Shown here: in pieces, positions 5,901-47,580 of the stretch
Position numbering within the stretch: position 1 is the first letter of the stretch
How the letters are laid out: each line of letters opens with the position of its first letter
Source: an uncultured Flavobacteriales bacterium
Lineage (GTDB): Bacteria; Bacteroidota; Bacteroidia; AKYH767-A; 2013-40CM-41-45
Direction: 5' to 3'
DNA length: 47,580 nucleotides
NCBI GenBank assembly: GCA_964355035.1
Contig: CAYHCU010000002.1
Span: 1 to 47,580, forward strand
Notes under the pieces: model-generated
Told to the model about the DNA's origin: nothing
The model's database searches: none
The model's input: only the letters and a program-made list of their open reading frames with translations
Translations under genes and position numbers: made by a program

Positions 5901-8142
5901 CATCACGGTTACGGTTTCTCCTGCTCCTGTTGTGAATTTTAATACAGCAAACGGCTCAGGATGCGGATCGCTTACTACAACATTTGTAAATTCCACAACC
6001 GGTTCACCAAGTTATATTTGGAATTTTGGAGATGGCTCTGCTTTTTCTTCAGTATTAAATCCAACACACACCTACTCTACTTCCGGAATATATTCTGTAA
6101 CACTCATTGCAACTCAGGGAACATGTGCAGATACATTGGTTAAAACAAATTACATTACAGTTTATGATTCTCCGATAAGCTCATTTACAACCTCTGATGT
6201 TTGTATCGGAGACTCTGTTCACTTTACAAATTTGTCGAACGGTAATGGCGAGCCAATAACGAACTATACATGGAACTATGGGGACGGGAATTTTTCTTCT
6301 CAGACATCACCGGCACATTATTATACATCGGCCGGCACCTATAACGTTCTGCTTTCAATCATAACAACTCATTGTGTTGATGACACAACAATTAGTGTAA
6401 TGGTTTCAGCCGGACCAATTGTTTCCTTTACCCCAAGCGCAACAACAATTTGCGGTAATCAAAATGTTGTGTTTACTAATACTACAACAGGGTCACCGAT
6501 TTATAGTTGGGATTTTGGAGATGGTAGTGCGTCTTCAGCAATAGTAAATCCAACGCATTATTATGCAGCCACAGGAACATACAGCGTTTCATTAATAGCA
6601 ACTCAGGGAAGTTGTGCAGACACATTAATTCAAAATTCACTTATCACCGTTTACGCAAGTCCTCTTTCTTCTTTTAGTACAGATAATGTTTGCTTGTACG
6701 ATAGTGTTCATTTTTTAAATGAATCTGTAATTAGTGGCGGTGTAATTACTTCGTACAGCTGGAATTTTGGTGACGGAACAACTTCTTCCGCCGATTCTCC
6801 TGTGCATTATTATTCTTCAGCCGGGACTTATTCGGTTAATTTGATTGCGGCTTCAGCTAATTGCTCAGACGATACAACAATCACTGTAACAGTAAATCCA
6901 AACCCTGTAGTTAACTTTATCTCTACAACGATCAGGGCATGTGACAGCGCAACTGTCTTTTTTAACAATACCTCAACAGGAGCAACAGCGTATTCATGGA
7001 ATTTCGGAGATGGTGGTGTATCTACATCAATATCGCCAACTCATTTCTATTCTTCGGCAGGGGTATATAATGTTTTGCTAACAGCAAGTAGTGTAAACGG
7101 TTGCTCAAGTTCAAAGTACGTTTCATCAATGGTAATTATAAAAAGCACCCCTTTACCACTTATTTCTGCCTCTCGAACATCTGTTTGTCCCGGGGAATGT
7201 ATTTCTTATACAGATTTAACAACAGGAACAAACACATCATGGCAATGGCAATTTAGCGGAGGGAATCCGGCGTCATCGATTTCCAGAAACCCCTCTTCTG
7301 TATGTTACAATACAATTGGTAATTATTCGGTGACATTAACTGTTTCAAATGGTTCTTGTACCGCCAGCCACACAGAAACATCGTTAATACATGTTGTAAA
7401 TTGCAGTACAAAACCACGAGCAAATTTTGTGAGTAGCGATACAAATTTATGTGGAGGGAGTTGTATTTCATTTGTTGATCTATCGTTGAATGCAGTAAGC
7501 TGGCAATGGCAATTTCCGGGAGCTACACCGACTTCGTCTACACAAGAGTTTCCAAATTCTATTTGTTATTCAACTACCGGTGTTTATCCGGTAACCCTTA
7601 TTGCAGGAAACACTACGGGTTATGATACATTTACTGTGTCCACTTTTATTCATGTTACTTCGTTACCCTCACAGCCTACGTTTACCCAAAGCGGAAACCT
7701 CTTAATAGCAACTTCTGCCAATACATATCAATGGTTTTATAATAACATTCCGATTTCCGGTGCAACGAACCAACAATATACTGCAACACTATCGGGCCCT
7801 TATTCTGTTCAGATAACAGACGCAAATGGTTGTTCTTCTACTTCTTTAATTTCTCATGTTTCATTGGTAGGGATTGATGATTTCAGTAGTTCAATGAATT
7901 TTGAAATTTATCCTAACCCAACAACAGGAGAAGTTTTTATTAAATCTGACAAGACATCGATTGGCATCATCCACATTGATATAATTGATTTACTTGGAAG
8001 GACTTTATTAACCAAGAGCGAAAAGAACAATTTTGTGGGGTCAATTTGGAAAATTGACATTTCAAATCTTGCCCAAGGCATGTATTTCATTCGTTTTAGA
8101 AATCAATATCAGGAATGGAAGACTTCGATTATTAAGGAGTAA
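2923..8142 (+). CDS. Giant secreted cell-surface protein: Gly-rich N-terminal region, 12 PKD-like modules, T9SS type A C-terminal sorting domain
   Basis: Signal peptide (FFRIVFLLIFSLNSLCLSAQ). GGxGG-rich region at about aa 250-500. Twelve modules each carry a W-x-FGDG core. The C-terminal sorting domain reads IYPNPTTGEVFIKS...GMYFIRF. Confidence 0.85.
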   Translation: MNRTLFGRSFFRIVFLLIFSLNSLCLSAQMGKNGALTTSTSFIFNDYTPLTVDATIGATTINVVSSLLNARITTPLAAGDLIFIIQIQGATMTVADDTTYGGLISYNNCGNYEFAEVTAVPSATQISISCQLKNNYSVSGKTQIVRVPRLTTLTIGSGGSITCPAWNGSTGGVLILEVMNGITINSGGLINASGKGFRAGQNASDNNTAYGVLNYVHPTDDYGAEKGEGIGGSQSDYDLISGRFCKGAPLNGGGGANGHNAGGGGGGNCGLLGWTGRGVPDISTASWANAWNLEYSGFASSVSSGGGKGGYTFSGSNQNALTVGTLNAAWGGDQRRENGGRGGRPLDYSTGRIFMGGGGGAGDQNNSYGGAGGNGGGIIYLLCYNTISGSGSVNANGDYGVSTVGAGTDGAGGAGAGGTIFLDATGLISGITANANGGNGGNQVVGAFINEAEGPGGGGGGGYIASSSGAFTRNANGGLNGTTNSSGLAEFPSNGATKGGVGLPSQPTNTFHIVTSTVYICPGTSTTLSFSTTGIVPPGTTFTWYDQAVGGTQIGSGTTFNSPVLSSGQITYYVSSCPGAARFPVQVQVSQVTATASATTVCSGIATDFTGTGTSSTGTISTWSWNFGNGSGTSLLQNPSYIYSTANTYTVTLTVTDNSGCTASTTQSVIVNATPTINFSTPTTSGCLPLNVSFTNTTTSASTYSWNFGDGSPLSSSTTPSHNYTTAGIYSVTLTASNTGCTATSTQTNLITVRAVPHSSFSSPSTLCLGDIASFANLSTPNGSTITGYSWNFGDASALSTGTNPTHTYLSAGTFNIVLTTSSAFCFDDTTIAITISPAPTVNFSTTTTSGCTPMTITFNNTTSGTPVYSWSFGDGSPLSTTTTPTHIYSNPGNYTVTLIASIGSCRDTLIRTNYISVYPQPTSSFSTASVCLGDSVHFINLSIGNGGTLTSYTWNYGDGTTSTATLPHLYFSPGSYNVLLTASTANCSDDTTITVTVSPAPVVNFNTANGSGCGSLTTTFVNSTTGSPSYIWNFGDGSAFSSVLNPTHTYSTSGIYSVTLIATQGTCADTLVKTNYITVYDSPISSFTTSDVCIGDSVHFTNLSNGNGEPITNYTWNYGDGNFSSQTSPAHYYTSAGTYNVLLSIITTHCVDDTTISVMVSAGPIVSFTPSATTICGNQNVVFTNTTTGSPIYSWDFGDGSASSAIVNPTHYYAATGTYSVSLIATQGSCADTLIQNSLITVYASPLSSFSTDNVCLYDSVHFLNESVISGGVITSYSWNFGDGTTSSADSPVHYYSSAGTYSVNLIAASANCSDDTTITVTVNPNPVVNFISTTIRACDSATVFFNNTSTGATAYSWNFGDGGVSTSISPTHFYSSAGVYNVLLTASSVNGCSSSKYVSSMVIIKSTPLPLISASRTSVCPGECISYTDLTTGTNTSWQWQFSGGNPASSISRNPSSVCYNTIGNYSVTLTVSNGSCTASHTETSLIHVVNCSTKPRANFVSSDTNLCGGSCISFVDLSLNAVSWQWQFPGATPTSSTQEFPNSICYSTTGVYPVTLIAGNTTGYDTFTVSTFIHVTSLPSQPTFTQSGNLLIATSANTYQWFYNNIPISGATNQQYTATLSGPYSVQITDANGCSSTSLISHVSLVGIDDFSSSMNFEIYPNPTTGEVFIKSDKTSIGIIHIDIIDLLGRTLLTKSEKNNFVGSIWKIDISNLAQGMYFIRFRNQYQEWKTSIIKE
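4690..7660 (+). repeat. Intragenic array of 12 PKD-coding modules with a two-module super-repeat of ~488 bp
   Basis: Modules alternate between two subtypes (xPxxNF...TSGC versus SSF...VCLGDSVHF). Equivalent boundaries recur near 4938, 5434, 5921, 6409 and 6898. Confidence 0.8.
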
Positions 8143-34349: not shown

Positions 34350-34390
34350 CTTCCCGGCCAATAGTGCAGAACACCGCATCCTCCAACAAA

Positions 34391-36655
34391 ATGAGAAAAC
34401 ACCTCCTTTTTGTGCTTTGCTTTGTCTTTCCATTATTTGGGTATTCTCAGCTAGTAATTACTAATAACGGATCAGCAATTGCATTAGCACAAGCTATTGT
34501 TGGGAATGGAATCACTGTCAGCAATGCGACGATTGACGGCGGTGTTAATTCGACAGCAACATTTACTTATTCAGGCGGTAGTCTCGGAATACCGAATGGT
34601 GTTTTGCTGACGAGCGGACTTGCTTCTGTTGTTGCCAATCCAGGAACATATTTCAGCAGTATTCAGAATGGAAATAATTTAAGTGATCCCGATGTAGTGG
34701 CTATTAGTTCTCAGGCACGTTATGATGTATGTTTGTTGGAGTTTGATTTTATTCCCGTTTGTGATACATTACACATTACTTATGTTTTCGGTTCAGAAGA
34801 ATATCCGCAATACATCAATCAATACAATGATGTTTTTGCAATGTTTCTCACCGGACCTGATCCTGCGGGAGGGAGTTATATTTCGCACAACATAGCGACC
34901 TTAGCGAATGGAATAACACCCGTTTCTATTTTTACGGTGAATGGTGGCTGGCCAATTGGTAATGGTGCTTCTAACCCGGCTTATTATGTAGACAACTACA
35001 CAAATCCAAATGCTGACATTGCTTATGATGGTTATACTATTCCAATAACTTCTGTCGTTGCTGTTACACCTTGTGTAATGTATCACATGAAAATTGCAGT
35101 AGTAGATGCCGGAAATGGAAGATATGATTCCGGTGTTTTTATACAGGGAAATACTTTCACATGCAATGTTGCACCGAGTTCGACAATCGTAGCAACGAAT
35201 GCATGTATTAATGACGGGACGGCTGCTGTTGTAGTAAGTGGTTATGCAGGCACACCAAATTTTTCATGGTTACCGGGCGGACAAACTACATCTTCAATTA
35301 CAAATTTAATTCCCGGAAATTATTCCTGTTTGATTACCTATCCAGGTGTATGCACGACAGACAGCTTAACAATCACTATCGATGATGCGCAACCAACAGC
35401 TGTTGCCATGACAGGAACAACGATTTGCATTGGACAAACAGTTGCGTTAACAGCAAACGCTTCAGGCGGCGTATCCGGTTATAATTATTCATGGACGACA
35501 GGTGGAACGCTAGTTAGTGCAAATGTGAATCCAACTGTAAACACTATTTACACAGTAGTTGCAATCGATGCTAATGGATGCAGTTCTCCTCCTGATACTG
35601 TTTTAATCAATGTGAATCCACCGTTGACGATACAGACTACAAATGCAGTGACACTTTGCTCGCCTTCATCTTTACCGCTTTCAGTAATTGCCTCTGGTGG
35701 CAATGGCACATTTAGTTACATGTGGTCGCCGGTAATCGGCCTGAGTGATCCGACAATTTCCAATCCCGTTGCCACTCCGGCAGCAACAACTTCATACACA
35801 GTTACTGTTACAGATAATTGCGGAACACCGGCAACGACATCAGCTGTTACTGTAACCGTCGAACAACAACCGGCTCCATTGATATCTGCAAATGTATTAT
35901 CAGGATGTGAACCGCTTTGTGTAGCATTTATTGATACATCCTTGTCAAATTGTTCGACAGCCACATGGATGTTTGGTGATGGCACCAATGCAACATCATG
36001 CGGGATTACAGTACATTGTTTTAATACACCGGGAACATTTACAATTACCAATACAGTGACAAGCACAGGAGGTTGTATCGGTTCGGGTACGCAGAGTAGT
36101 TACATCACTGTTTTTCCAAAACCCAAATCGTTATTTTCTTACTGGCCTAATCCGGTATTGATTATTGATCCTGCGGTTAGCTTTACAAATAATTCAACCG
36201 ATGCAATTTCCTGGCAGTGGTCTTTTAGCAATGACGTTAACGACACATCAACACTGAAAAATCCGAAGTATGTTTATCAGGATACGGGATGTTTTCCACT
36301 TCGGCTGATTGCAAAAAGTCAGTTTGGTTGCACAGATACATTGAATTCAGAAATATGTGTGGAGATGGAATTTGAATTCTACACACCAAATACTTTTACG
36401 CCAAACGGTGATGGAATAAATGAAATCTTTTTCCCGCAAGGCACAGGCATAAGTGAAAGCGATTACGAGTTTTTAATTTTTGATCGCTGGGGAAGAGAAA
36501 TTTTCAAGACCACAAAATGGGGTGAAGGCTGGAACGGAAAAGTGAAAGACGGATCAAAGATAGCGCAGCAGGACACTTATGTTTGGTTGGTAAAGGTGTA
36601 TGATGTACAAAAGAATTTTCATCAGGTTGTGGGGAGGGTGAGTTTGGTGAGGTGA
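34391..36655 (+). CDS. Secreted protein with a choice-of-anchor-L-like N-domain, Ig/PKD-like repeats and a T9SS type B (gliding-motility-associated) C-terminal domain
   Basis: A signal peptide follows ATG 34391 (MRKHLLFVLCFVFPLFGYSQ). N-domain blocks EEYPQYINQYNDVFAMFLTGP and YDGYT. The C-terminus reads FTPNGDGINEIFFPQG...FDRWG. Confidence 0.85.
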   Translation: MRKHLLFVLCFVFPLFGYSQLVITNNGSAIALAQAIVGNGITVSNATIDGGVNSTATFTYSGGSLGIPNGVLLTSGLASVVANPGTYFSSIQNGNNLSDPDVVAISSQARYDVCLLEFDFIPVCDTLHITYVFGSEEYPQYINQYNDVFAMFLTGPDPAGGSYISHNIATLANGITPVSIFTVNGGWPIGNGASNPAYYVDNYTNPNADIAYDGYTIPITSVVAVTPCVMYHMKIAVVDAGNGRYDSGVFIQGNTFTCNVAPSSTIVATNACINDGTAAVVVSGYAGTPNFSWLPGGQTTSSITNLIPGNYSCLITYPGVCTTDSLTITIDDAQPTAVAMTGTTICIGQTVALTANASGGVSGYNYSWTTGGTLVSANVNPTVNTIYTVVAIDANGCSSPPDTVLINVNPPLTIQTTNAVTLCSPSSLPLSVIASGGNGTFSYMWSPVIGLSDPTISNPVATPAATTSYTVTVTDNCGTPATTSAVTVTVEQQPAPLISANVLSGCEPLCVAFIDTSLSNCSTATWMFGDGTNATSCGITVHCFNTPGTFTITNTVTSTGGCIGSGTQSSYITVFPKPKSLFSYWPNPVLIIDPAVSFTNNSTDAISWQWSFSNDVNDTSTLKNPKYVYQDTGCFPLRLIAKSQFGCTDTLNSEICVEMEFEFYTPNTFTPNGDGINEIFFPQGTGISESDYEFLIFDRWGREIFKTTKWGEGWNGKVKDGSKIAQQDTYVWLVKVYDVQKNFHQVVGRVSLVR

Positions 36656-36791
36656 TAATGAAATTCGTTGCATTTATAATTTTGAGATAATATATATTAC
36701 TAAAAATCAACGGTTTGCGTAGGTTTAGGAATATGAACCGGGTTTTCTCAAAAATTTTTGCAAACACATACATTTACTTAACACTATAATA

Positions 36792-36841
36792 GTAAACACA
36801 TATGTTAACATTTTGTTTGTATTGTAAATATATATGTTTAC
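36792..36841. promoter_or_regulatory. Two related imperfect palindromes that are candidate operators for the HTH gene
   Basis: GTAAACACATATGTTAAC (36792-36809) and GTAAATATATATGTTTAC (36824-36841) both fit GTAAA-N8-TT(T/A)AC. Their starts are 32 bp apart, and the second ends 30 nt upstream of ATG 36872. Confidence 0.35.
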
Positions 36842-36871
36842 GTTTGTTGTAAATTGTAAAATTCAAATGCC

Positions 36872-37333
36872 ATGCGGAATCAAAAAAAGTTACTAATAGA
36901 GCAACTTGATAAAAAATTAAAACCTTTCCAGGGAACAGAGAAAGTTATTATTCCGGACAAGGGTTGGATATACAATATTAGAGCTGCATTGAATATGAGT
37001 CTTGATCAACTAGGCAAAAAATTAAATATGACAAGACAAGGAATAAAAAAAATTGAAGAGAGAGAATTATCGGAATCAATATCATTAAAATCTTTAAAAG
37101 AAATTGCAAAAGCATTGGATATGCAATTCGTATATGGTTTTGTTCCAAAGCACAATTCTTTAGAAAATCTGGTAAATTTTAAAGCAGAAGAGCTAGCTCG
37201 GAAAATAGTATTAAGAACAAATCAAAATATGAAATTGGAAAATCAAGGAAATAGTGAGGAACAAATTAAGCGTGCAATTTTAGACCTTGCCAATGAAATA
37301 AAAAGAGAAATGAACAAATCATTATGGGATTAG
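36872..37333 (+). CDS. HTH protein of the 'mobile mystery protein A' type (putative antitoxin/regulator)
   Basis: GWIYNIRAALNMSLDQLGKKLNMTRQGIKKIEE helix-turn-helix region and a layout that matches my memory of the TIGR02612 family. It overlaps the downstream Fic gene by 10 nt. Confidence 0.8.
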   Translation: MRNQKKLLIEQLDKKLKPFQGTEKVIIPDKGWIYNIRAALNMSLDQLGKKLNMTRQGIKKIEERELSESISLKSLKEIAKALDMQFVYGFVPKHNSLENLVNFKAEELARKIVLRTNQNMKLENQGNSEEQIKRAILDLANEIKREMNKSLWD

Positions 37334-37920
37334 ATTTGGAATATGAGGAAGGTCAAACGCCTCTAAGTGAAGAAGAAAAAGAAGGTCTTTTAATTAGTTC
37401 AATTACTACGCATGGTGATTTGGATGAGCATGAACAATTGAATATAGAGGAGGCAATTAAGTGGCTACTTAATAAAAAAATAAAAAAGGACAAAATATTA
37501 ACCGAAAGTTTCATTAAAATGGTACACAAAAAAATGTTTAATAATGTTTGGTCATGGGCAGGTGAGTTTAGAAAATCAGAAAAAAATATTGGAGTTAGAT
37601 GGATAAATATCGGAGTTGATTTAAAAACATTACTCGATGACACTAATTATTGGATTGAAAATAAAACATACGCCCCTGATGAAATAGCAATAAGATTTAA
37701 GCATAGATTGGTAAACATACATTGCTTTCCAAATGGAAATGGAAGACATTCTAGAATAATGGCAGATATTATAATCGAATCCGTTTTTGGCGAAAAAATA
37801 TTTTCTTGGAATCAGTCAAACATGGTCAAAGCAGATGATACAAGAAAAGAATATATAAGGTCAATAAGAGAGGGAGACAAAGGTGACATTAAACCATTAA
37901 TCAAATTTGCCAGAAATTAA
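37324..37920 (+). CDS. Fic-domain protein of the 'mobile mystery protein B' type (putative AMPylating toxin)
   Basis: Fic motif HCFPNGNGRHSR at 37720-37755. The N-terminal YEEGQTPLSEEEKEGL block is typical of this family. Confidence 0.88.
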   Translation: MGLDLEYEEGQTPLSEEEKEGLLISSITTHGDLDEHEQLNIEEAIKWLLNKKIKKDKILTESFIKMVHKKMFNNVWSWAGEFRKSEKNIGVRWINIGVDLKTLLDDTNYWIENKTYAPDEIAIRFKHRLVNIHCFPNGNGRHSRIMADIIIESVFGEKIFSWNQSNMVKADDTRKEYIRSIREGDKGDIKPLIKFARN

Positions 37921-38030
37921 GATCGCAGCTTTAACACATCGATTGCTTTTACACCAAACAGCAATGGAATAAACGAAATTTTTCTTCTGCAAGTTACAGG
38001 CATAAGTGAAAGCGATTACGAGTTTTTATC
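37921..38030 (+). pseudogene. Remnant of a T9SS type B C-terminal domain gene (about 35 codons)
   Basis: It translates as DRSFNTSIAFTPNSNGINEIFLLQVTGISESDYEFL. Nucleotides 37996-38028 are identical over 33 nt to 36443-36475 in the intact gene upstream. Homology begins immediately after the Fic stop codon, in the same frame, and ends abruptly at about 38029. Confidence 0.7.
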
Positions 38031-38493
38031 TGTCTTTTTAAAAACGAAAACGTTTACCCAAAGCGGAATGAGACATTAATAAGAGAGAGTTTTGCGAGTT
38101 TGTACTATTCCGGTTGACATTCCACCCGGCGGGAAGTTGATCAGATGGAGAGTTTGTAAGACAATTTATATGATTTATGATTGAAATGGCAAAATTGCTG
38201 GATTTTTCGTTATACTTGTGAAAGCAAAGGGATATATACGGGTTTAGTTTTTAGAAGGGAGTGGTAAGTGAAGTGATATTAGAAACAAACAGTGGTTAAT
38301 TGCCAAGTACAATTCAGGGAATTGTTGTTCTACACGAAGGATGATCGGGAAGAAGCCGGTAAAAGTATTGATGGAATAAATGTGATGGGGTGTGATTATG
38401 TCGGAATAGAGAGAGTAAATGTAGGGTATAGGAGATATGTAAAGCAAATCGAAATACTAGGTAGCGCTATAAACTAACAATTTCACTTTATTT

Positions 38494-39159
38494 ATGAAAG
38501 ATTCAGAATTTATATTAAAACTCTTGGACATCAACCAACCCATGGCTGAAAATCCAACACGCTTTTCTACATTAGCGTTGCTTTTAACAAGTGGACGGAA
38601 ACTTTTTGGTTGCAATTTGGAAACCGGAAAATATGAATTGAATGAGGTAAACGATGAAAACTTTATTGATAAAACATATCATTCATTTCAATTTACCGCA
38701 TTAATAAATTACTTGATTTTATTAGAGCAAATTGGAAGCATTTTTATTAAAAAAAACGGCAGTAAAATAAAAGAAACTAATGGAATATTTTGCGCACTAA
38801 CATATTTTTCAAGTTTAACGGATACTGACAAAATAGAAGCTATTCAAGCTTTACGTAATTCTCTAGTTCATAAATTCGGATTAGCTACTGAAAAAAAACC
38901 TCATAAGATGCCTCCGAGGAAATTCATACTAAGTATTGCACGAAATAGTGAAATTGTAGAGCAACCTAAATCTGACTGGGACGGAACGTTTTCTGACAAA
39001 TCTGACGAGACCTCAACAACAATATTTATTGTAGATCTCATAATACTAATTGAAACTGTTTACCAAAATGTAATTCAGGAAAATAAAAACGGTAATGTAG
39101 AAATGATCTTGAAGGATGGAATGAGCGAATTAGAAAGCAGATATACTTTCATATATTAA
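38494..39159 (+). CDS. Hypothetical protein, possibly a HEPN-like RNase (RNxxxH motif)
   Basis: 221-aa ORF with ALRNSLVH (R121-x4-H126, nt 38854-38871). This fits the Rx4-6H HEPN motif with the usual polar residue after the Arg. I recognise no other motif. Confidence 0.45.
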   Translation: MKDSEFILKLLDINQPMAENPTRFSTLALLLTSGRKLFGCNLETGKYELNEVNDENFIDKTYHSFQFTALINYLILLEQIGSIFIKKNGSKIKETNGIFCALTYFSSLTDTDKIEAIQALRNSLVHKFGLATEKKPHKMPPRKFILSIARNSEIVEQPKSDWDGTFSDKSDETSTTIFIVDLIILIETVYQNVIQENKNGNVEMILKDGMSELESRYTFIY

Positions 39160-39269
39160 GATAATCAAAGCCTTTCATGCTATTCGCGTAACTTCTGCCA
39201 TAGAAGCTCGGTAAACGCATGAAATATAGATTATAAAAGAAATTGCGAATTTAACATATAAATTAAGAT

Positions 39270-39515
39270 ATGATTAAAATCAACTTTCAATTTGCCAATA
39301 ATGAAAAGCCAACAATAGCGGCAACGATTCAACAAAATATTCGTCAGCGAATACAGGATGAAAAATTGCATGAAACTACAGATGCAACTGTTAACTTGGA
39401 GTATACTGGAAACGGAACAATACTTATGGAAATGCCGATAAGTATTCCTATCAATTCAAATACGCGAATTATTGAAATATCATTTGAGGAAATAAAGGCA
39501 TTAATATCAAACTGA
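39270..39515 (+). CDS. Hypothetical small protein (81 aa)
   Basis: The ORF lies 6 nt upstream of the TPR gene on the same strand. I recognise no motif. Confidence 0.45.
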   Translation: MIKINFQFANNEKPTIAATIQQNIRQRIQDEKLHETTDATVNLEYTGNGTILMEMPISIPINSNTRIIEISFEEIKALISN

Positions 39516-39521
39516 CTCATT

Positions 39522-40508
39522 ATGGAGAATATTGACCAAAACAATACCGCAATAATTCCTGTTGGTTCAACGGACTTAGTTAGGGTTGGTAATACGCTTT
39601 CAATTACAAATAAAATATTAATTGGAGACATTGAGAAGGATTTTAACCTAGCCTTTTATTTATTGAATAACAGAGATCTACTATTAAATACTGACGACTA
39701 TTGCTTTAAGTTGGAAAATGATTCCCAATACAGGAAGTCAAACAAATTTAAATACATTTCTTCCAACGTCGATAATTATTCTAAGGCAATTACATTATTT
39801 AATTCAATACTTCAAACTAAACCCTATCATTGCCTTTCTTATGAAATGAGGGCAGTCGCTAAAATTAAATTAAAGAATTATTTAGGAGCAATCGAGGATT
39901 ATTCTAAGGCAATTGAAATTAATTCAAAATACGCTTTTGCTTTTAATGGTAGAGGAAACGCTAAGTTGCAATTAAAGGATTACTTAGGGGCAATCGAGGA
40001 TTATGACAAGGCAATTGAAATTGATTCAAAATACGCTTTTGCTTTTAATGGTAGAGGAAACGCTAAGTTGCAATTAAAGGATTACTTAGGGGCAATCGAG
40101 GATTATGACAAGGCAATTGAAATTGATTCAAATATTGCAACGGTGTTTAATAATCGAGGGAAGAGCAAGTATAATTTAAAAGATTACGCAGGGGCAATCG
40201 AGGATTATGACAAGGCAATTGAAATTTATCCAAATTTTGCCAATGCATTTTATTGTCGAGGCGTCGCCAAGGTTTACGTAAAGAATTACACTGGAGCAAT
40301 AGATGATTTTTCTAAGGTAATTGAAATTAGTCCTAAAAACGCCTTTGCATTTAATGCTCGAGGCATGACCAATGAACAACTAAAAAATTATGTTGGAGCA
40401 ATTGAGGATTATTCCAAGGCAATTGCAATTGATCCAAATTACATCACTGCGCGTAATTTTCGAGAAAATGCATTAAAGAAATTGGCGGATTTGACTGGCC
40501 ATGAATAA
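39522..40508 (+). CDS. TPR-repeat protein (about 7 TPRs) with a distinctive N-terminal module
   Basis: Seven 34-aa units of the form Y.GAIEDY.KAIEI.P....AF..RG.AK. N-terminal MENIDQNNTAIIPVGSTDLVRVGNTLSITNKIL is shared with the protein starting at 41954. Confidence 0.85.
   Translation: MENIDQNNTAIIPVGSTDLVRVGNTLSITNKILIGDIEKDFNLAFYLLNNRDLLLNTDDYCFKLENDSQYRKSNKFKYISSNVDNYSKAITLFNSILQTKPYHCLSYEMRAVAKIKLKNYLGAIEDYSKAIEINSKYAFAFNGRGNAKLQLKDYLGAIEDYDKAIEIDSKYAFAFNGRGNAKLQLKDYLGAIEDYDKAIEIDSNIATVFNNRGKSKYNLKDYAGAIEDYDKAIEIYPNFANAFYCRGVAKVYVKNYTGAIDDFSKVIEISPKNAFAFNARGMTNEQLKNYVGAIEDYSKAIAIDPNYITARNFRENALKKLADLTGHE
39888..40229 (+). repeat. 102-bp (one TPR unit) tandem repeats with a perfect 109-nt duplicated stretch
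   Basis: GCAATCGAGGATT recurs at 39888, 39990, 40092 and 40194. Nucleotides 39922-40030 are identical to 40024-40132. Confidence 0.9.
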
Positions 40509-40539
40509 GTGATAAAACAACATTCAACAATATTTGAAT

Positions 40540-41913
40540 ATGCAAACCGAAGCTGTTTTTGAAAATATAGCAGAACGAATACAACAAGAAATCAGTAAGG
40601 CACAAAAGTCAATATTTATTGCATTGGCGTGGTTTACTAATAAAAACCTTTACAATGAATTGTTGAAAAAAGCAAGAAATGGTTGCACTGTTTCTCTCAT
40701 TATTTCCAACGACAATATTAATCTTAATTCATTAATTGATTTTGAACAGTTGATTGCCGCCAAATCAAAAGTTTATAAAATAGGGAACGGCGAAACGGAA
40801 TTAATGCACAATAAATTTTGTGTTATCGATTATAGCACAGTCATTACAGGTTCTTATAACTGGAGTTACAAAGCAGAAAGTAATTTTGAGAATGTAATCA
40901 TTACAAATAATGATACAACACTAGCGGAACAATTTATTTCAGAATTTAATAATATTCGAAAACAATATTATCCAGATGATAAAAAAGAAGAAGTAATTTT
41001 TCCGTTAAACAAAATCATTAAACGTTTGGAAATTCTCAAAAATTACATTCTGCTTGAAGACGTTGATGAATTAGGCAAGGAAACAGCAAAACTTAAGGAA
41101 TACGAATTTAACTCTGACTTACTTGAAATAATTTATGATGTAAGGGAAGAAGAATTCGCGTCAGCAATAAATAAAATTCAAAAATTTATTTCTAAAAATC
41201 AACAACTTTCAATTTGGACTGACCCCGAAATAGCGGCACTTAAACTTGAGATTAAAAATCTTGAGAATCAACTCAATGCATATGGAAATGAAAAGATAGA
41301 GCTGGAGAAACTACTTTTGGAGTTTCATCATCGACATACAATCGAACTTGGAGAAGTTATTCTTGATATTCTGAAATTAAGAAAACGCAAATTCAAAGCT
41401 GATAAAATAAAATTTGAAGAAGCGGAAAATGATGAAAGACAATATCGTGAGCAAGTCAATAAAGAAAAAGATATAAAAATATTTGAATTAACAGATGATC
41501 AAAAAAAAGAGTTAAAAATAAAATTTCGGAAAGCAACTGTCTTGTGCCACCCGGACAAATTTACAAACGAGTCAATTGAAATTCAAAAGTTAGCAGAAGA
41601 AATATTCAAAGAATTAAACGAGGCGAATTCAAAAAATGATTTGTCTAGGGTTATCGAAATTTTAGCTAATCTTGAAAAGGGTATTCTCTCAACTAACAAA
41701 GGAGACATATTAGCAGACAAAGAAAAATTAAGAGCAACAATAAATAGATTGCGAATAAAGGTTGAAGTATTAGAAACCGAAATTATAGACATTAAGCAAA
41801 ATGACACTTTCAAAATAATTATTGAAATTCAGGACTGGGATCAATATTTTAAAAACACAAAGGAGAAACTGAAAAGGGAACTTGAAGAATTACGACTTGA
41901 AATTAAAATTTAA
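40540..41913 (+). CDS. Single-HKD phospholipase-D/Nuc-like domain fused to coiled coils and a J domain
   Basis: Complete HxK(x)4D(x)6GSxN motif (MHNKFCVIDYSTVITGSYN, nt 40807-40860). J-domain helix II, HPD and helix III (ELKIKFRKATVLCHPDKF...AEEIFKELNEA; HPD at 41548-41556). Heptad-rich linkers. ATG 40540 is preferred over TTG 40534. Confidence 0.8.
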   Translation: MQTEAVFENIAERIQQEISKAQKSIFIALAWFTNKNLYNELLKKARNGCTVSLIISNDNINLNSLIDFEQLIAAKSKVYKIGNGETELMHNKFCVIDYSTVITGSYNWSYKAESNFENVIITNNDTTLAEQFISEFNNIRKQYYPDDKKEEVIFPLNKIIKRLEILKNYILLEDVDELGKETAKLKEYEFNSDLLEIIYDVREEEFASAINKIQKFISKNQQLSIWTDPEIAALKLEIKNLENQLNAYGNEKIELEKLLLEFHHRHTIELGEVILDILKLRKRKFKADKIKFEEAENDERQYREQVNKEKDIKIFELTDDQKKELKIKFRKATVLCHPDKFTNESIEIQKLAEEIFKELNEANSKNDLSRVIEILANLEKGILSTNKGDILADKEKLRATINRLRIKVEVLETEIIDIKQNDTFKIIIEIQDWDQYFKNTKEKLKRELEELRLEIKI

Positions 41914-41953
41914 AGTTGCACTAAAAATAATTAAAACTGATAACAGGAACAAA

Positions 41954-42613
41954 TTGTCGGAAGATATAAAACAAAATTCAATAATACCCATTTGCTCATC
42001 TGACCTTGTTAGAGTAGGAAATTCCATTGCCTTAACTAATAAAATACTCAAAGAACATGATGAAAGGTTTATTGAGAAAACTTTTGAAACGATAGGTAAT
42101 CAAAAGTGGTGTATAAAAAATCTTTATGTTAGTAGGTACAGGAATGGCGATATAATACCACAAGTACAAGACGAGGTTCAGTGGGCATCATTAACAACTG
42201 GCGCTTGGTGTTATTACCAAAATGATCCGGATAATGGCTTTAACTATGGTAAGTTGTATAATTGGTTTGCAGTTGATGATGTTCGTGGACTTGCGCCTTT
42301 AGGTTTTCATATTCCAACAGATTTGGAATGGAAAATGTTCTATGATTATTTAGGCACCTTTGGAGGTGAATCATGGCGCTGGTTGATCCTTGATTTTTTA
42401 GGAAAGTACGGAAAAATTGCATTTCTTCCCGGAGGCTGCAGGGACAATAATGGGATGTTCTTCGAGCGGCTTAGCTTTGGTTACTGGTGGAGTTCTAAAG
42501 AAGTAAATATCTCGTTTGCTTGGAACCTAAGGCTCTCTTGTATAATTAACTCTGAAAACATGAACAGCAAAAATAAGCGTCATGGTTTTTCGGTTCGTTG
42601 CATCAAAGATTGA
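41954..42613 (+). CDS. FISUMP (Fibrobacter succinogenes major paralogous) domain protein with no signal peptide, carrying the N-terminal module shared with the TPR protein
   Basis: C-terminal blocks GKLYNWFAV, GFHIPTDLEW and GFSVRCIKD. I propose the TTG start at 41954, which gives MSEDIKQNSIIPICSSDLVRVGNSIALTNKIL and aligns with the N-terminus of the TPR protein. The ORF-track start at 41882 would overlap the upstream gene. Confidence 0.72.
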   Translation: MSEDIKQNSIIPICSSDLVRVGNSIALTNKILKEHDERFIEKTFETIGNQKWCIKNLYVSRYRNGDIIPQVQDEVQWASLTTGAWCYYQNDPDNGFNYGKLYNWFAVDDVRGLAPLGFHIPTDLEWKMFYDYLGTFGGESWRWLILDFLGKYGKIAFLPGGCRDNNGMFFERLSFGYWWSSKEVNISFAWNLRLSCIINSENMNSKNKRHGFSVRCIKD

Positions 42614-42781
42614 AAATTTCCTGTTTGATAATTACTAACTTCCATGTTTAAACAAGATGAGTTATGAATTCTATGGGACATGCTTTATGAAAGAGAATTT
42701 TACATGCGATTCTGTGAGAACTTGGTAGAGAAACTCGTTTTTATAATCCGATTAAAAATGCGAACAGAAAGATAAATTTTG

Positions 42782-43366
42782 ATGAAACTCATATATTCAA
42801 CATATACAGAACTTTTACTTAAATACAGTAATCGATCAGGGATTCCATATTTCGAATTACTTCTAACTAAGGAATGGGAGGGAAAAAGAAATCAAATCTT
42901 AAATAGAGATAACCAAACATGTTGCTATTGTGGGAAAAAATCTACAGAATACATTGAAGGCTTAGGTAATATTTGGATTTACATACAAGAGAGAATTGAA
43001 AGGGGGTATAGTTCCGATGGTGATGGGGTTGAGGAATTTGAATATGTTAATGAAGTTACTTACCACGAAGTTTCAGACAAACCCTATTATTTACATGTCC
43101 ATCACAAGTATTATATTTTAAGTTGTTTACCATGGGAATATTCTGATGATGCGCTTATGTCATTGTGTAGCTGGTGTCATTGGAAATTTCATGCTGAGAA
43201 TACCGTACCGGTTTTTGAAAATCAACAGAAAATTATTAATCTTAACTACCACCCTTGCCATAGATGTAATGGTGCCGGGTGGTTTCCACAATATAACCAT
43301 GTTCAAAGCGGAATTTGTTTCCGTTGTAGTGGCGAAAAATATGAGGAGTTAATTAAAGAAACATGA
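42782..43366 (+). CDS. HNH endonuclease with a C-terminal DnaJ-type CxxCxGxG zinc finger
   Basis: CCYCGKK...LHVHHKYY...LCSWCHWKFH forms the HNH beta-beta-alpha metal finger. The C-terminus reads CHRCNGAGW...GICFRCSGEKY. Confidence 0.72.
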   Translation: MKLIYSTYTELLLKYSNRSGIPYFELLLTKEWEGKRNQILNRDNQTCCYCGKKSTEYIEGLGNIWIYIQERIERGYSSDGDGVEEFEYVNEVTYHEVSDKPYYLHVHHKYYILSCLPWEYSDDALMSLCSWCHWKFHAENTVPVFENQQKIINLNYHPCHRCNGAGWFPQYNHVQSGICFRCSGEKYEELIKET

Positions 43367-43464
43367 ATTATATTCGAAAAAACCACCATCTAGAAAGCAA
43401 GGAAAATAATTTGAATCAAATTCTTTTTTAAATATTGAGCTGCGAAAAGAAAAATAATAGCATT

Positions 43465-44148
43465 ATGAATTTAGACAAACTCTTCGAATTATATGAACAA
43501 GAAGAAGAACGACGTTATCAAGAAGAACTTTCAGGACCAGAGCCGATGAGCGCATTGAAAAGGGAGAATATATATAAGTTAGCATACGACAATTTCAAAT
43601 TCGTGCTCGGAAAACATGTTTTTGGTAAAACAACTTTAACAGGAGAAAACCTTGATGCAATGCAAAAGTATGATATCTCAGTAGAAGAAGCATCAATAAT
43701 TTATATGTACACTAGTCATGGAATTTTTGACGATGTGAATAGTCAACTTAGATGCCGGCCGGAATATTTAGATGAAGATATTAAAGAGTATTGCAGATTA
43801 TTGGATGATGCATTAGAAAAAATGCCATCGCATAATAAATGTACAGTTTACAGAGACATTTCATGCTCAGAAGAGGAGTCGGCTTCAATTATAAATAATT
43901 ATCGATTAAGCATAGAGAAGGAAATAATAGAAAGTGCGTTTGTTTCAACACATATTGAAAATGAAAGATGGTCAGAAGCATCGGGGGTGCATATAATCAT
44001 TAAAACTAAAGAAAAAAGCAATGGAAAGGGTTTAATGGAGTTGAGTTTTAATGCAACTGAGGGAGAGGTGTTATTTAAAAAGGGAACGCCTTTTAAAGTA
44101 GATGGTGTCGATGTGGAAAACAATATGGTATATTTAACTGAAATATAA
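43465..44148 (+). CDS. ADP-ribosyltransferase of the R-S-E (C3/VIP2-like) class
   Basis: IIYMYTSHGIFDDVNSQLR (the Y-T...N..LR block), TVYRDIS (catalytic Arg), FVSTH (S-T motif), ATEGEVLF (ExE, nt 44059-44067). No signal peptide. Confidence 0.72.
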   Translation: MNLDKLFELYEQEEERRYQEELSGPEPMSALKRENIYKLAYDNFKFVLGKHVFGKTTLTGENLDAMQKYDISVEEASIIYMYTSHGIFDDVNSQLRCRPEYLDEDIKEYCRLLDDALEKMPSHNKCTVYRDISCSEEESASIINNYRLSIEKEIIESAFVSTHIENERWSEASGVHIIIKTKEKSNGKGLMELSFNATEGEVLFKKGTPFKVDGVDVENNMVYLTEI

Positions 44149-44494
44149 GTAGCCTAATCAAAATTTAGTGAGAATTGTTCCTTAGATTAGAATTCAAATG
44201 CGGCGGCTTTTTTGCCTCCGAATCGTGAGCGGTCACCTGTTTCAATTTCCAAAGCTTAATAAGCATTAGAAAACTTCATTTCAATCCGCCCCCATCAACC
44301 ATTATTCCATAATCCCCCAAAAAAACTAACTGCTTGAAATTTACCGTTATTAAATATGAACACCCCATGTTTTGAGCGGAGGGGTGGTACGTTGAAAACT
44401 ATTTCAGGGTTTTTTGATATCGATTTGTGTTTGCTCGTGTATCTTCGTTTTAGAGATTGAGAAAAATTATTCATCAATTAAAACCGGTAATAAA

Positions 44495-44818
44495 ATGGGA
44501 GAATTACTCAAAGCATATTGTGAAAAATGCGGATTTACTAAAAAGACTTGTTTGGGTTCAGGGGAAGCTGACTTTGACTACAACTGTAATTTCCCTGCGA
44601 TAGATTTAGAATACAATAAGTTTACGGTAGGAAATATTTTAAAGGAAGAAGAATCAAAAGGGAGATATAAATTTTATAATGATCCAACGATGTTCCTGGA
44701 AAAACCTGAAGGTAGGGTGCATAAGTGTAGAGATTATTCTTTGCAACGGGAAAATAATTATTGTCCGATATGCGAAAGATTTACAATGAAATTTGAAAGT
44801 GACGGGAATTATGACTAG
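44495..44818 (+). CDS. Small zinc-ribbon protein (107 aa)
   Basis: CEKCGF near the N-terminus and CPICERF near the C-terminus. The internal ATG at 44495 is preferred because the upstream part of the ORF is a low-complexity leader. Confidence 0.5.
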   Translation: MGELLKAYCEKCGFTKKTCLGSGEADFDYNCNFPAIDLEYNKFTVGNILKEEESKGRYKFYNDPTMFLEKPEGRVHKCRDYSLQRENNYCPICERFTMKFESDGNYD

Positions 44819-45011
44819 ACAGTGTCGATTTAATTGCCGGGAGGAAAGGGATTAGAGGGATTTAAAGGTTTAAGGTGTTTAATTATTTAAATGGTTTAAC
44901 GAGTTTAAAAAAGGTAATCGAAGAAGTTTAATTTTTATAAGCCGGAAAAGGGTCTATAAAATTATTGGATCATGAGTGACTTTTAGAAGTGTAATTATAA
45001 CAATAAATAGA

Positions 45012-45422
45012 ATGGAAAAGGAAAAAAAATATAGGTATTTAATTATTGCAGAAATTAGGAACAAGGGGTATCTCCTTAAATTTATGTCTGATTTAAAAGA
45101 AGCAGACAAATATGCCAAAGAAATATTTGAATTGTCCAATGAGTATTCAATTTATGAGCAGTATAAAATTGAAACTAAACTAACTTATTTCGCCTCCTAC
45201 CATGTAAATGGTACTGAAGTTTATATTGGAAACGGTTGTTGCGGGCAATCCAATGGAGTTTACACGGTTGGTACAATGAAAGTAGACATAAATAATTTTC
45301 GGTTAAATTCATTTATCAGAGAGCGGGAAAATCACTCAACAGTTTTTCCCCGTGAAGATCAATGGGATCAGGTTGACAAATTTTTAAAATTATTCCCATC
45401 GCCGAATTGGATTGCTAATTGA
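45012..45422 (+). CDS. Hypothetical protein (137 aa)
   Basis: ORF on the island strand. I recognise no motif. Confidence 0.45.
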   Translation: MEKEKKYRYLIIAEIRNKGYLLKFMSDLKEADKYAKEIFELSNEYSIYEQYKIETKLTYFASYHVNGTEVYIGNGCCGQSNGVYTVGTMKVDINNFRLNSFIRERENHSTVFPREDQWDQVDKFLKLFPSPNWIAN

Positions 45423-45454
45423 AAGATATTTAAATAAAACAAAAATATATTAAC

Positions 45455-46015
45455 ATGAACTTAAATTCTTTACATAAGCGCTTTCTTTTTTCAATTCTTT
45501 TTTCATTAATTTTCTCAAATATTTCCTTTGCTCAATTGAGCAATAAAAGTATTTGTACAGACAGAGACAAATTTTGTTTTCAATTATCATTCGAACAGAT
45601 AGATTTACCGGAGTTATTCGATAAACTTTACGTCATCAACAAGAATTTAATTTATCTCACGGGACTTAACGTTGCTTCAAATAAAACTTTATTTTCGGTT
45701 AGCAAATATGTTAATCAAAAAGATATAAGTTTTGATAGCGCTTTTTCAATGACCGTCAATTATGTGCCCAAAGTAGGAAGCTTTAATAATAGCGACTATC
45801 ATCTATTGGATTTTGGAAAATATAAAGTTAATGGAAAAGAATTACGGTATAAAATTTCGAATCCATTAGAAAATGAAATATCCATCATGTACTATTTTAT
45901 GAAAGGCAATTCATCTAAAGAGATGTACGAAATAAAAGCAACTTGTAATAGAGAAACGCAAAAGCAATGCAAACAGTTTATGGAAAATGTTGCGCTCTCG
46001 GTTGTACTGCATTGA
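45455..46015 (+). CDS. Hypothetical secreted protein
   Basis: Clear signal peptide (FLFSILFSLIFSNISFAQ). I recognise no motif. Confidence 0.55.
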   Translation: MNLNSLHKRFLFSILFSLIFSNISFAQLSNKSICTDRDKFCFQLSFEQIDLPELFDKLYVINKNLIYLTGLNVASNKTLFSVSKYVNQKDISFDSAFSMTVNYVPKVGSFNNSDYHLLDFGKYKVNGKELRYKISNPLENEISIMYYFMKGNSSKEMYEIKATCNRETQKQCKQFMENVALSVVLH

Positions 46016-46087: not shown

Positions 46088-46127
46088 AAAAACTTTGCAC
46101 GGCCCTTAAGGGCCGTGCAAAGTTTTT
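46088..46127. repeat. REP-type palindrome (copy 4) between convergent genes
   Basis: AAAAACTTTGCACGGCCCTTAAGGGCCGTGCAAAGTTTTT is a perfect 40-nt palindrome. Its core is identical to the core of the 30611-30662 copy. Confidence 0.85.
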
Positions 46128-47580
46128 TATTCTACAACAAGCTTCTTAACTTCACTTGTTTTCCCATTGGTCACTCTCACATTATAAATTCCTTTTGCAA
46201 GAGAAGTAAGATCAATCGCTTTACGGTCACCCGACCAGTCGAAATGTTTTTCTAATTCGCCGATCATATTATAAATAGAAAGTGTATAATGTTGATTTGA
46301 TTTCCCGTTGGTGTTGATGGTGACAAATCCTGCTGTTGGATTTGGGTAGATGGCAAATCCAATATAATCGATTTCTTTCACGCTTAATGTAACGGCTGAA
46401 TCATAGTAGATGATAAGATTACTGTTTACATCGAGGACAGGATTAAATCCATCACTGCAATCGGTGCAAGTTGTACCGGTTACGCAGCCCGGATTGTTTG
46501 GGTGACATTGATCAACGTATCCTGTAAAAAATTCGTAGCCAAGACTGATATTTTGATTTGCAACAAAAGATGTCATGTCGTAATCAAAATAAGGAGCAAT
46601 AGAACCGGGGCACCATCCAGAGCGGGCATAAGTCCATGTGCCACTTTGTGGTGAGCAACCGTCAGGGTTAGGATTACATGCTTGCCAATTGTGTTGTGAA
46701 AATGTATTGACCCCATTTACAAAAATTGCATGAGTTGCATCATAAAATTCTGCGGCATTGCCGGTGTTTAAAGATCCCCATCCATGACCGGTGCTCACCA
46801 ATTTTAATTTGGAAGCAATTGCATGGTCAGGAAAAGTATAATTAAAATCAGGCACAGGCTGAAGATTAGCATAGTCGCCAAAAGGATAAACATCTTTCCA
46901 AACTCTTTGCACGCTACTGTATTTATATTGAGGAGCGCCTTCTTTGAAATCAAATTTCAATTGGAAGACAAAGCCGTTATCCAACGTAGTGCAATTCGCT
47001 CTGAACGTCACCTTGCCCTGTAAGAGTGCCCTGTAATCAGCGACATTTATTTGATGAGAACATGCTACACCGAAAGGCGTAATATATCGGATAATCTCGA
47101 ACCATTGTCCATCGTGTCCTTTTGCATCGATACTTGCAACTCTGTCATAAGGACCGCAACCACCGGAAGGACAAGTAACAACCAAGGTAGCAATGATGGT
47201 ATCAAAAGCACCTACATACGAAGGAAGTATTCCCTCGCGTGTTGTCGAACTTGTATCTGTGTTCAACCAAATTCCACTGAAGGCAGAAAGATTGTTAATG
47301 TCGCTGACTGTTTGAACAACATTGATGTTCACGTTTACAACATTTGTTGCACCGAAATTGCTTACGGAAGTAATTTGAATGGTGTAAGGTCCGTAAGAAG
47401 GAGGAGTCCACAAAGCTGTGTAGTGACCGTTTCCATAAGTATCCATTGTTAAATTCTGTCCGCTGATTGAAATAGCAACACTTTGTACACTGAACAATCC
47501 GGCATAATCAATATCTACTAAAGCAGCAATTTGCATAGTAGAAAGAGTCGGCATATATACATTAGCGCCATCAACAGGAT
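46127..47580 (-). CDS. PNGase-F-like protein with a T9SS type A sorting domain. The 5' end lies beyond the window.
   Basis: The frame stays open upstream of the ORF-track Met at 47554 out to the window edge. Blocks CPSGGCGPYDR, GHGWG and W.YARSGWCPG resemble PNGase-F-type domains. The C-terminus reads IYPNPTAGFVTI...GIYNVRV. Confidence 0.75.
   Translation of the reverse strand, partial: PVDGANVYMPTLSTMQIAALVDIDYAGLFSVQSVAISISGQNLTMDTYGNGHYTALWTPPSYGPYTIQITSVSNFGATNVVNVNINVVQTVSDINNLSAFSGIWLNTDTSSTTREGILPSYVGAFDTIIATLVVTCPSGGCGPYDRVASIDAKGHDGQWFEIIRYITPFGVACSHQINVADYRALLQGKVTFRANCTTLDNGFVFQLKFDFKEGAPQYKYSSVQRVWKDVYPFGDYANLQPVPDFNYTFPDHAIASKLKLVSTGHGWGSLNTGNAAEFYDATHAIFVNGVNTFSQHNWQACNPNPDGCSPQSGTWTYARSGWCPGSIAPYFDYDMTSFVANQNISLGYEFFTGYVDQCHPNNPGCVTGTTCTDCSDGFNPVLDVNSNLIIYYDSAVTLSVKEIDYIGFAIYPNPTAGFVTINTNGKSNQHYTLSIYNMIGELEKHFDWSGDRKAIDLTSLAKGIYNVRVTNGKTSEVKKLVVE

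Follow-up and report, generated by a model that had tools for sequence, protein, structure and literature searches.

Why would two proteins that are otherwise unrelated begin with the same short peptide? The question is raised by three adjacent genes in the window, by which we mean the whole 47,580-nt stretch that was analysed (positions 1 to 47,580 of contig CAYHCU010000002.1, assembly GCA_964355035.1, from an uncultured Flavobacteriales bacterium). A TPR protein gene (39522-40508) and a FISUMP protein gene (41954-42613) lie on either side of a third gene (40540-41913), all on the + strand and in one operon. The N-terminal segment common to the two outer proteins is referred to here as the module, the proteins bearing it as carriers, the middle protein, which combines a PLD-type nuclease domain, a coiled coil and a J-like domain, as the hub, and the hub gene with its carrier genes as the cassette. 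The initial annotation of this DNA had described the two module copies and left out the hub gene between them, which proved to be the constant companion of the module. On balance, the results are best explained by a docking role of the module, which would tether interchangeable binding subunits to the nuclease/J-domain hub. We infer the binding, the nuclease activity and the role in defence alike, and consider this reading probable by a modest degree.

The intergenic gaps within the cassette are 31 nt (TPR/hub) and 40 nt (hub/FISUMP), and no terminator-like sites were found between the three genes. A scan for sigma-70 promoters gave 47 sites against 42 expected and was uninformative. The features of the cassette are as follows.

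39522..40508, + strand: putative sensor subunit 1 (328 aa), the module followed by a TPR array (TPR_1, E = 1e-48; module hidden Markov model (HMM), E = 5e-23, residues 1-40)
39546..39620, + strand: module core in the TPR protein (residues 9-33, TAIIPVGSTDLVRVGNTLSITNKIL), from the alignment and the consensus
39868..40442, + strand: tandem repeats of 102 bp within the TPR gene, 5.6 copies, one TPR unit each (Tandem Repeats Finder)
40540..41913, + strand: hub protein P0001 (457 aa; PLDc_2, E = 1e-24; DnaJ, E = 3.5e-5)
40540..40974, + strand: PLD/Nuc-like nuclease domain of the hub, residues 1-145 (HKD motif HNKFCVID at 40807-40830, then GSYNWS)
41005..41472, + strand: helical domain (156-224) and long coiled-coil helix (229-311) of the hub in the AlphaFold model, the candidate docking region
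41494..41676, + strand: J-like domain of the hub, residues 319-379 (HPD motif at 41548-41556, LCHPDK)
41954..42613, + strand: putative sensor subunit 2 (P0121, 219 aa; TTG start, no signal peptide), the module followed by a FISUMP domain
41975..42049, + strand: module core in the FISUMP protein (residues 8-32, NSIIPICSSDLVRVGNSIALTNKIL), from the HMM and the alignment

The N-terminus encoded by the TPR open reading frame (ORF; 39522-40508) reads MENIDQNNTAIIPVGSTDLVRVGNTLSITNKIL, and that of the FISUMP ORF, read from TTG 41954, is (L/M)SEDIKQNSIIPICSSDLVRVGNSIALTNKIL. The two agree at 22 of 40 aligned residues and at 16 positions of a 24-residue core, close to the about 16 of 25 given in the initial annotation. 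The core codons comprise eight that are identical, eight that differ synonymously and eight that differ non-synonymously; nucleotide identity is 49/72 (68%), distributed over codon positions 1, 2 and 3 as 14/24, 24/24 and 11/24, with the third positions close to saturation. The local alignment score was 94, and 5000 shuffles gave a mean of 20, a standard deviation (sd) of 4 and a maximum of 42. The score relative to the shuffles and the codon-position pattern thus indicate that the similarity is far beyond chance, was maintained at the protein level and is old, and the initial annotation's view that protein-level conservation and no recent duplication was involved held good. No third copy of the module was found in the six-frame translation of the window. 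A short motif in an AT-rich genome could in principle need no functional unit at all and go back to chance, to a recent local duplication or gene conversion, or to a nucleotide-level element such as a 5' regulatory RNA or a recombination site. Since the alignment score lies 18 sd above the shuffles, the third codon positions are 46% identical and yet 16/24 residues and all second positions are kept, and 84 independent clusters have the motif at an equal N-terminal offset, the probability of this explanation is negligible.

These clusters were obtained by an exhaustive HMMER search of 1.84 billion representative proteins at E <= 1e-3, for which both module copies of the window were combined into a profile. 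The search returned 86 representative clusters, 84 of which were confirmed by an independent HMM; the remaining two were rejected as multi-stretch false positives. The module match starts at residues 1-6 in 80 of the 84 confirmed representatives and at residue 1 in 61, and their consensus is M-x3-N-x2-N-x-S-[ILV][ILV]-P-[IV]-x-S-x2-L-[IV]-[KR]-V-x-N-[ST]-[ILV]-x-[ILV]-T-N-K-[ILV][ILV]. The mean pairwise identity over the 25-column core is 55% among representatives that are less than 50% identical overall. Scans of genomes and metagenomes for the module gave 16 loci. The motif is thus present in other genomes as well, on unrelated C-terminal domains. No match in Pfam (2025), NCBIfam (2026), PADLOC (2023) or the PDB sequences covers the module, and IMG/VR viral contigs yielded no confirmed match. 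A word-indexed homologue search with the 40-aa module alignment returned nothing, which is not evidence of absence as the query is too short for the index. A 193-aa protein encoded 3' of the hub in two loci (L002 5798-6379 and L003 2529-3110; it starts MDGNKIIKVNNLPSVQRLEVSLKLTDKIL) looked module-like by eye and was rejected, the module HMMs giving E > 1.

In the window, the module precedes domains of two known families. The TPR carrier matches TPR_1 as listed above, and the FISUMP carrier matches Fib_succ_major at E = 2e-31 over residues 47-218, above the curated cut-offs (PF09603, 110 bits vs 33.9; TIGR02145, 68 vs 41.65). Two of the repeat copies in the TPR gene code for an identical 34-residue unit, suggesting a recent repeat expansion in the TPR sensor. 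The FISUMP domain begins at residue 47 of the 219-aa protein. No in-frame ATG, GTG or TTG occurs from 41954 to 42200, so any synthesis of the FISUMP domain has to include the motif. Public gene calls differ, giving either 219 aa from TTG 41954 (P0121) or 243 aa from TTG 41882; the longer call overlaps the last 32 nt of the hub gene, and its extra residues are without counterpart in homologues. The homologues begin M-[ST]-[ED]-D-x-N-K-E-N-S-I-I-P at an equal offset with an ATG start, and since those compared share that offset, the comparison favours TTG 41954, the start that the initial annotation had chosen.

Ordinary FISUMP relatives carry a signal peptide or a lipobox (MKK, a hydrophobic stretch and C), and the module-bearing FISUMPs have neither; no hydrophobic stretch of the kind found in Sec or lipoprotein signals was seen in the module. 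The remark in the initial annotation that this FISUMP protein lacks a signal peptide was therefore correct, and a cytoplasmic role is implied. This bears on the idea that the module is an export or packaging signal, that is, a cargo tag for a contractile injection system, for type VI or type IX secretion, or for a phage particle. A conserved, non-enzymatic N-terminal peptide on unrelated proteins would suit such a signal, as would the usually extracytoplasmic location of FISUMP domains. Against it, besides the missing hydrophobic signal region, secretion or injection genes occur in 0 of about 25 neighbourhoods; sheath, tube and baseplate genes are likewise missing from them, and the cargo tag for contractile injection suggested in the initial annotation found no support. 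In addition, the type IX secretion system (T9SS) uses C-terminal domains, as it does elsewhere in the window; the module was not found in IMG/VR contigs, nor the full-length hub in phage genomes; and the constant partner is a cytoplasmic-type nuclease/J protein. An export signal is hence very improbable.

The module has no autonomous fold in the AlphaFold model of the FISUMP-carrier monomer, which fits a peptide that folds on binding. In that model, residues 1-19 have pLDDT values (the AlphaFold confidence measure) below 50, and a helix at residues 17-43 has values of 43-74. The hydrophobic residues L18, V21, I25 and L32 show a helix-like spacing by eye. A Foldseek search with the model gave just C-type-lectin-like matches, none of them significant.

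The C-terminal partners of the module vary widely. Among the 86 representatives, there were 20 TPR proteins, 17 FISUMP proteins and about nine WD40/PQQ-type beta-propellers. Further partners were LRR proteins, FISUMP combined with TPR, WG-like and 'KWDW' repeats, a ~145-aa domain of no known family, with which a PDB sequence search found nothing, and an Hsp70 substrate-binding domain (HSP70 profile positions ~370-516, E = 1e-12 to 1e-20). The carriers of the last type (L032 4961-5491; P0143, P0153 and P0160) are without the nucleotide-binding domain and adjoin a J-domain hub. No enzymatic fusions were seen among the partner domains identified, and judged by these families, all module partners are non-enzymatic ligand-binding scaffolds.

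In contrast to these variable partners, the neighbouring hub gene is constant. In all loci with enough sequence, about 25 independent ones (the window, L002-L004, L006-L016, L020-L027, L031-L034 and the P0180 contig), a carrier gene lies 4-37 nt from a hub gene. Five carriers from the exhaustive search were selected because their domains were unusual, and all five stood beside a hub. The hub was not visible in L001 and L005 only, both of which end at a contig edge. Each hub has one to three carriers. The majority of loci contain one carrier gene; there are two in L013 and L016 and three tandem ones in L001 and L032, and in the window one stands on either side of the hub. In L029 (4986-5900; also L030), a 304-aa hub without the PLD domain, 42% identical to hub residues 156-451, is followed by a canonical module-FISUMP carrier. 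Since the PLD-less hub keeps its carrier, the module tracks the helical/coiled-coil/J part and not the nuclease. In Riemerella anatipestifer CP081184 (L017; 6065-6376, 6461-7126 and 7148-7855), an IS1595-family transposase gene splits a module-LRR carrier that lies upstream of an intact hub; the cassette of this strain is probably disabled. In L001, the module (4884-5027) and a WD40 body (5031-5927) are in adjacent ORFs with a stop between them, a pseudogene or an assembly error.

The number of carriers per locus is relevant to the suggestion in the initial annotation that the module is a homotypic adaptor of the effector-associated domain (EAD), or Death-like, type. The modules would then bind each other, the carriers would oligomerise, and the link to the hub would be indirect or absent. 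EADs provide a precedent for small terminal domains shared by adjacent genes (PMC7159879), and operons with two or three carriers that differ in their C-terminal domains (the window, L001, L013, L016 and L032) would be expected from such an adaptor. The conflict-type setting that the suggestion presupposed was also borne out, as the neighbours are those of defence islands. In the EAD model, however, one copy resides on a core component and others on effector or signalling enzymes, often in an adjacent gene, with homotypic action proposed (PMC7159879). The invariant core hub has no module copy (module HMM on hub ORFs, E > 5; hhalign probability, 0.6%), contrary to this defining pattern, and what the carriers provide are binding scaffolds, with no effector or signalling enzyme among them. 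Single-carrier loci, the majority, still keep the module, and Pfam EAD families were unmatched by window residues 1-45 and by the 86 representatives. The defence context and the multi-carrier operons agree with the homotypic suggestion and the rest does not; it is partly supported at best and such an adaptor is unlikely, although carriers may still associate with one another.

The hub itself begins at ATG 40540, where its homologues begin with MQTEAVF; a mechanical ORF list has TTG 40534. It consists of the PLD domain (1-145), a helical domain (156-224), a long helix (229-311), the J-like domain (319-379) and C-terminal helices. The PLD domain has the hallmarks of single-HKD nucleases, namely HxKx4D (HNKFCVID), GSxN (GSYNWS), a Nuc-like fold and a PLDc_2 match at E = 1e-24. 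The best Foldseek matches of the hub AlphaFold model were Zucchini, NucT, Nuc and FAM83, with 4ggj, 6ehi and 1byr at a probability of 1.0 and template modelling (TM) scores (target) of 0.65-0.72. Among 51 hub homologues, N91 and D97 are invariant and H90 and K92 nearly so; in the HPD motif, H337 and D339 do not vary. The helical/coiled-coil region (41005..41472) has a majority-residue conservation of 0.89-0.90. The J-domain assignment of the window hub is borderline by sequence; the constant HPD residues, precomputed PF00226 matches in many homologues and weak matches to the J domains of auxilin and Sis1 speak for it.

At E <= 1e-5, the hub has 1321 homologues, of which the best 120 show 74-83% identity and carry Flavobacteriales, Cytophagales and Bacteroidales names; named sources include Riemerella anatipestifer, Lunatimonas salinarum, a Porphyromonadaceae isolate and various Bacteroidota metagenome-assembled genomes. 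They are annotated merely as PLD-like or DUF1669. PADLOC-DB v2 gave generic DrmC/MkoB-like matches on the PLD domain only; the carriers were unmatched, and no known anti-phage system was recognised. No full-length hub was found in the phage collection, where nearly all matches were to the PLD domain and one was a partial match to hub residues 293-437. The plasmid collection likewise contained no full-length hub, and its matches were to the PLD domain and to stand-alone coiled-coil/J homologues in Enterobacteria. One of the latter, on the Salmonella plasmid NZ_CP149222 (L028 5001-6176, WP_001033457), is a 391-aa 'DnaJ family molecular chaperone' that lacks the PLD domain, is 30-35% identical and has no adjoining carrier.

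The presence of a J domain on the hub raises another explanation, in which the module is a chaperone-client tag: the J domain of the hub would hand the module to host DnaK, infection-perturbed DnaK availability would control the sensors, and stable docking would be unneeded. The module is always beside a J-domain protein, the PLD-less hub included; it has hydrophobic patches with basic flanks (LVRV, ITNKIL), the monomer model shows it as disordered or with low confidence, and the carriers include a class whose C-terminal part is an Hsp70 substrate-binding domain. The DnaK-binding motifs known so far are short and degenerate, whereas conservation in the module extends over ~25 positions, with G, N, T and P among them. 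This conservation points to a specific structured partner and not to a generic Hsp70 site. Moreover, an Hsp70 nucleotide-binding domain is encoded in none of the loci. A precedent for the involvement of J proteins exists in bNACHT25, whose sensing of a phage coat protein requires host DnaJ (PMC12169576). Taken together, a client tag is an improbable explanation, to about the same degree as a homotypic adaptor.

Under the docking reading, the cassette was hypothesised to work as described below. The variable domains of the carriers would recognise a protein ligand from an invader or from stress. The module, probably an extended segment and an amphipathic helix, would couple the carriers to the helical/coiled-coil part of the hub. 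Ligand binding would alter the oligomerisation of the hub such that two HKD half-sites pair and form an active nuclease. Host DnaK, recruited by the J domain, would load, reset or license the complex. Single-HKD nucleases such as Nuc and Zucchini act as dimers with one active site per dimer, and a ligand-driven change in hub pairing is therefore a plausible switch.

Several observations weigh against this hypothesis. The structures behind the putative contact between module and hub were predicted for monomers, and the low-confidence AlphaFold helix says little on the bound state of the module, whose structure is unreadable from the monomer model. The J domain of the window hub scores 24.3 bits against Pfam DnaJ (E = 3.5e-5), below the cut-off of 27.8. 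A Mantel/mirror-tree comparison of module and hub distances gave only a weak correlation (r = 0.23, p about 0.08). PADLOC recognises no more than a generic DrmC-like PLD in this putative defence system, and most loci are short metagenomic contigs without assigned taxonomy. Finally, toxin-like genes found upstream of the carriers could be the true effectors, or unrelated neighbours.

These upstream genes and the other neighbours define the context of the cassette. Across the loci, the neighbours include GmrSD, type I restriction-modification, TIR, SLATT, RES, SMEK, Fic, ADP-ribosyltransferase, ADP-ribosylglycohydrolase and AbiJ genes, together with integrases and insertion sequence elements. 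In the best reading, the cassette is a small unit of the defence islands of Bacteroidota and spreads by horizontal transfer. The neighbour directly 5' of the carrier gene often touches or overlaps it, and its toxin-like type varies by locus (TIR, SLATT, RES, DUF6602, Fic or a Ser/Thr kinase). Since no region common to these variable genes was found, they are not claimed as members of the system; they may be a third, variable component or mere neighbours. In the window, a small ORF occupies the place that variable toxin-like genes have in other loci. The features concerned are as follows.

39270..39515, + strand: ORF of 81 aa that matches no family and ends 7 nt before the TPR gene
Upstream toxin-like genes in other loci: L002 2599-3432, L005 1306-2142, L006 115-948, L009 1007-1846, L012 156-1064, L020 5583-6962 and L025 3863-4963

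The cassette of the window lies in a low-GC island (~36500-46000), where the GC content is 0.30-0.34, compared with 0.41-0.43 in the flanks. The island is flanked by two T9SS-cargo genes (34364-36655 and 46127-47554), and every gene in it is on the + strand. It starts with an HTH_3 gene (36872-37333) and an overlapping Fic/DOC gene (37324-37920) in a toxin-antitoxin-like order. A Cys-rich 195-aa protein is encoded 166 nt past the FISUMP gene (42779-43366); it is HNH-endonuclease-like (PHROGs, E = 9e-8), contains by eye two CxxCxG motifs as in the DnaJ zinc finger, and has no Pfam match. The island also encodes an ADP-ribosyltransferase exoenzyme-like protein (43435-44148; PF03496, E = 4e-15) without an evident partner.

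No previous description of the cassette was found in the literature searched, nor in Pfam, NCBIfam or PADLOC, and a description beyond that literature is possible. The cassette was compared with known systems that it resembles. EAD1-EAD11/bDLD of the NTP-dependent ternary conflict systems (Kaur, Burroughs, Iyer, Aravind 2020; PMC7159879) are likewise small, non-enzymatic terminal modules on unrelated proteins of adjacent genes in conflict loci, proposed to couple swappable parts to a core. The cassette differs from them in that its core is without a module copy, its carriers are not enzymes, and it has no STAND, vWA-MoxR or GTPase core. STAND/NLR-like proteins (Avs, bNACHT) also combine TPR, WD40, LRR or C-type-lectin-like sensors with a nuclease effector in defence islands. 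Unlike these, the cassette has no NTPase switch, its sensor and effector are separate polypeptides, presumably joined via the peptide, and the regulatory element is likely to be a J domain instead of an NTPase. The cassette is therefore closest in logic to EAD-type coupling and closest in parts to NLR-like sensors, and it is a member of neither class because it lacks an NTPase and has a heterotypic tag and a J domain on the effector. In bNACHT25, the Hsp70/J-protein network is similarly tied to infection detection, but this protein has no J domain of its own and uses host DnaJ, whereas the J domain of the cassette is built into the hub.

The N-terminal domain of the hub resembles Nuc, NucT, Zucchini and DrmC of DISARM in its HxKx4D and GSxN motifs and its Nuc/Zucchini fold. 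Compared with these single-HKD nucleases, the hub adds a roughly 300-residue helical/coiled-coil/J region and module-bearing partners, and the DrmA, DrmB and methylase genes of DISARM are not near the cassette. Type III CoCoNuT systems are defence superoperons in which coiled coils and PLD nucleases occur together with Hsp70-like domains (PMC11090510), a similar set of parts. Unlike the cassette, they are built on McrBC GTPase homologues and a helicase, have both the nucleotide-binding and the substrate-binding domain of Hsp70, and lack a J domain as well as a common N-terminal peptide. Phage receptor-binding proteins and tail fibres share the principle of a conserved N-terminal anchor whose C-terminal recognition domains are exchanged by recombination; the cassette differs in having no phage structural genes, in the absence of the module from viral contigs and of the full-length hub from phage collections, and in its nuclease/J partner.

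A more far-reaching proposal, which we regard as doubtful, is that the cassette represents an innate-immune architecture without an NTPase, in which receptors plug in via a 30-residue peptide and the host Hsp70 cycle serves as the switch to nuclease activation. In that case, such a chaperone-coupled signalling unit would have relics or relatives in the coiled-coil/J homologues that stand alone in Enterobacteria.

If the module is indeed a portable docking tag, it would provide a rule for building immune complexes of multiple specificities, in which one effector hub is served by many plug-in sensors, and it would be a second, independent case of the Hsp70/J network in bacterial immunity, here within the effector itself. 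FISUMP and an isolated Hsp70 substrate-binding domain would moreover gain roles in the cytoplasm, and the tag/hub pair could be an engineering handle. For the family as a whole, the cassette would offer a context for more than 1,000 proteins labelled just 'PLD-like' or 'DUF1669', including those of the poultry pathogen Riemerella anatipestifer.

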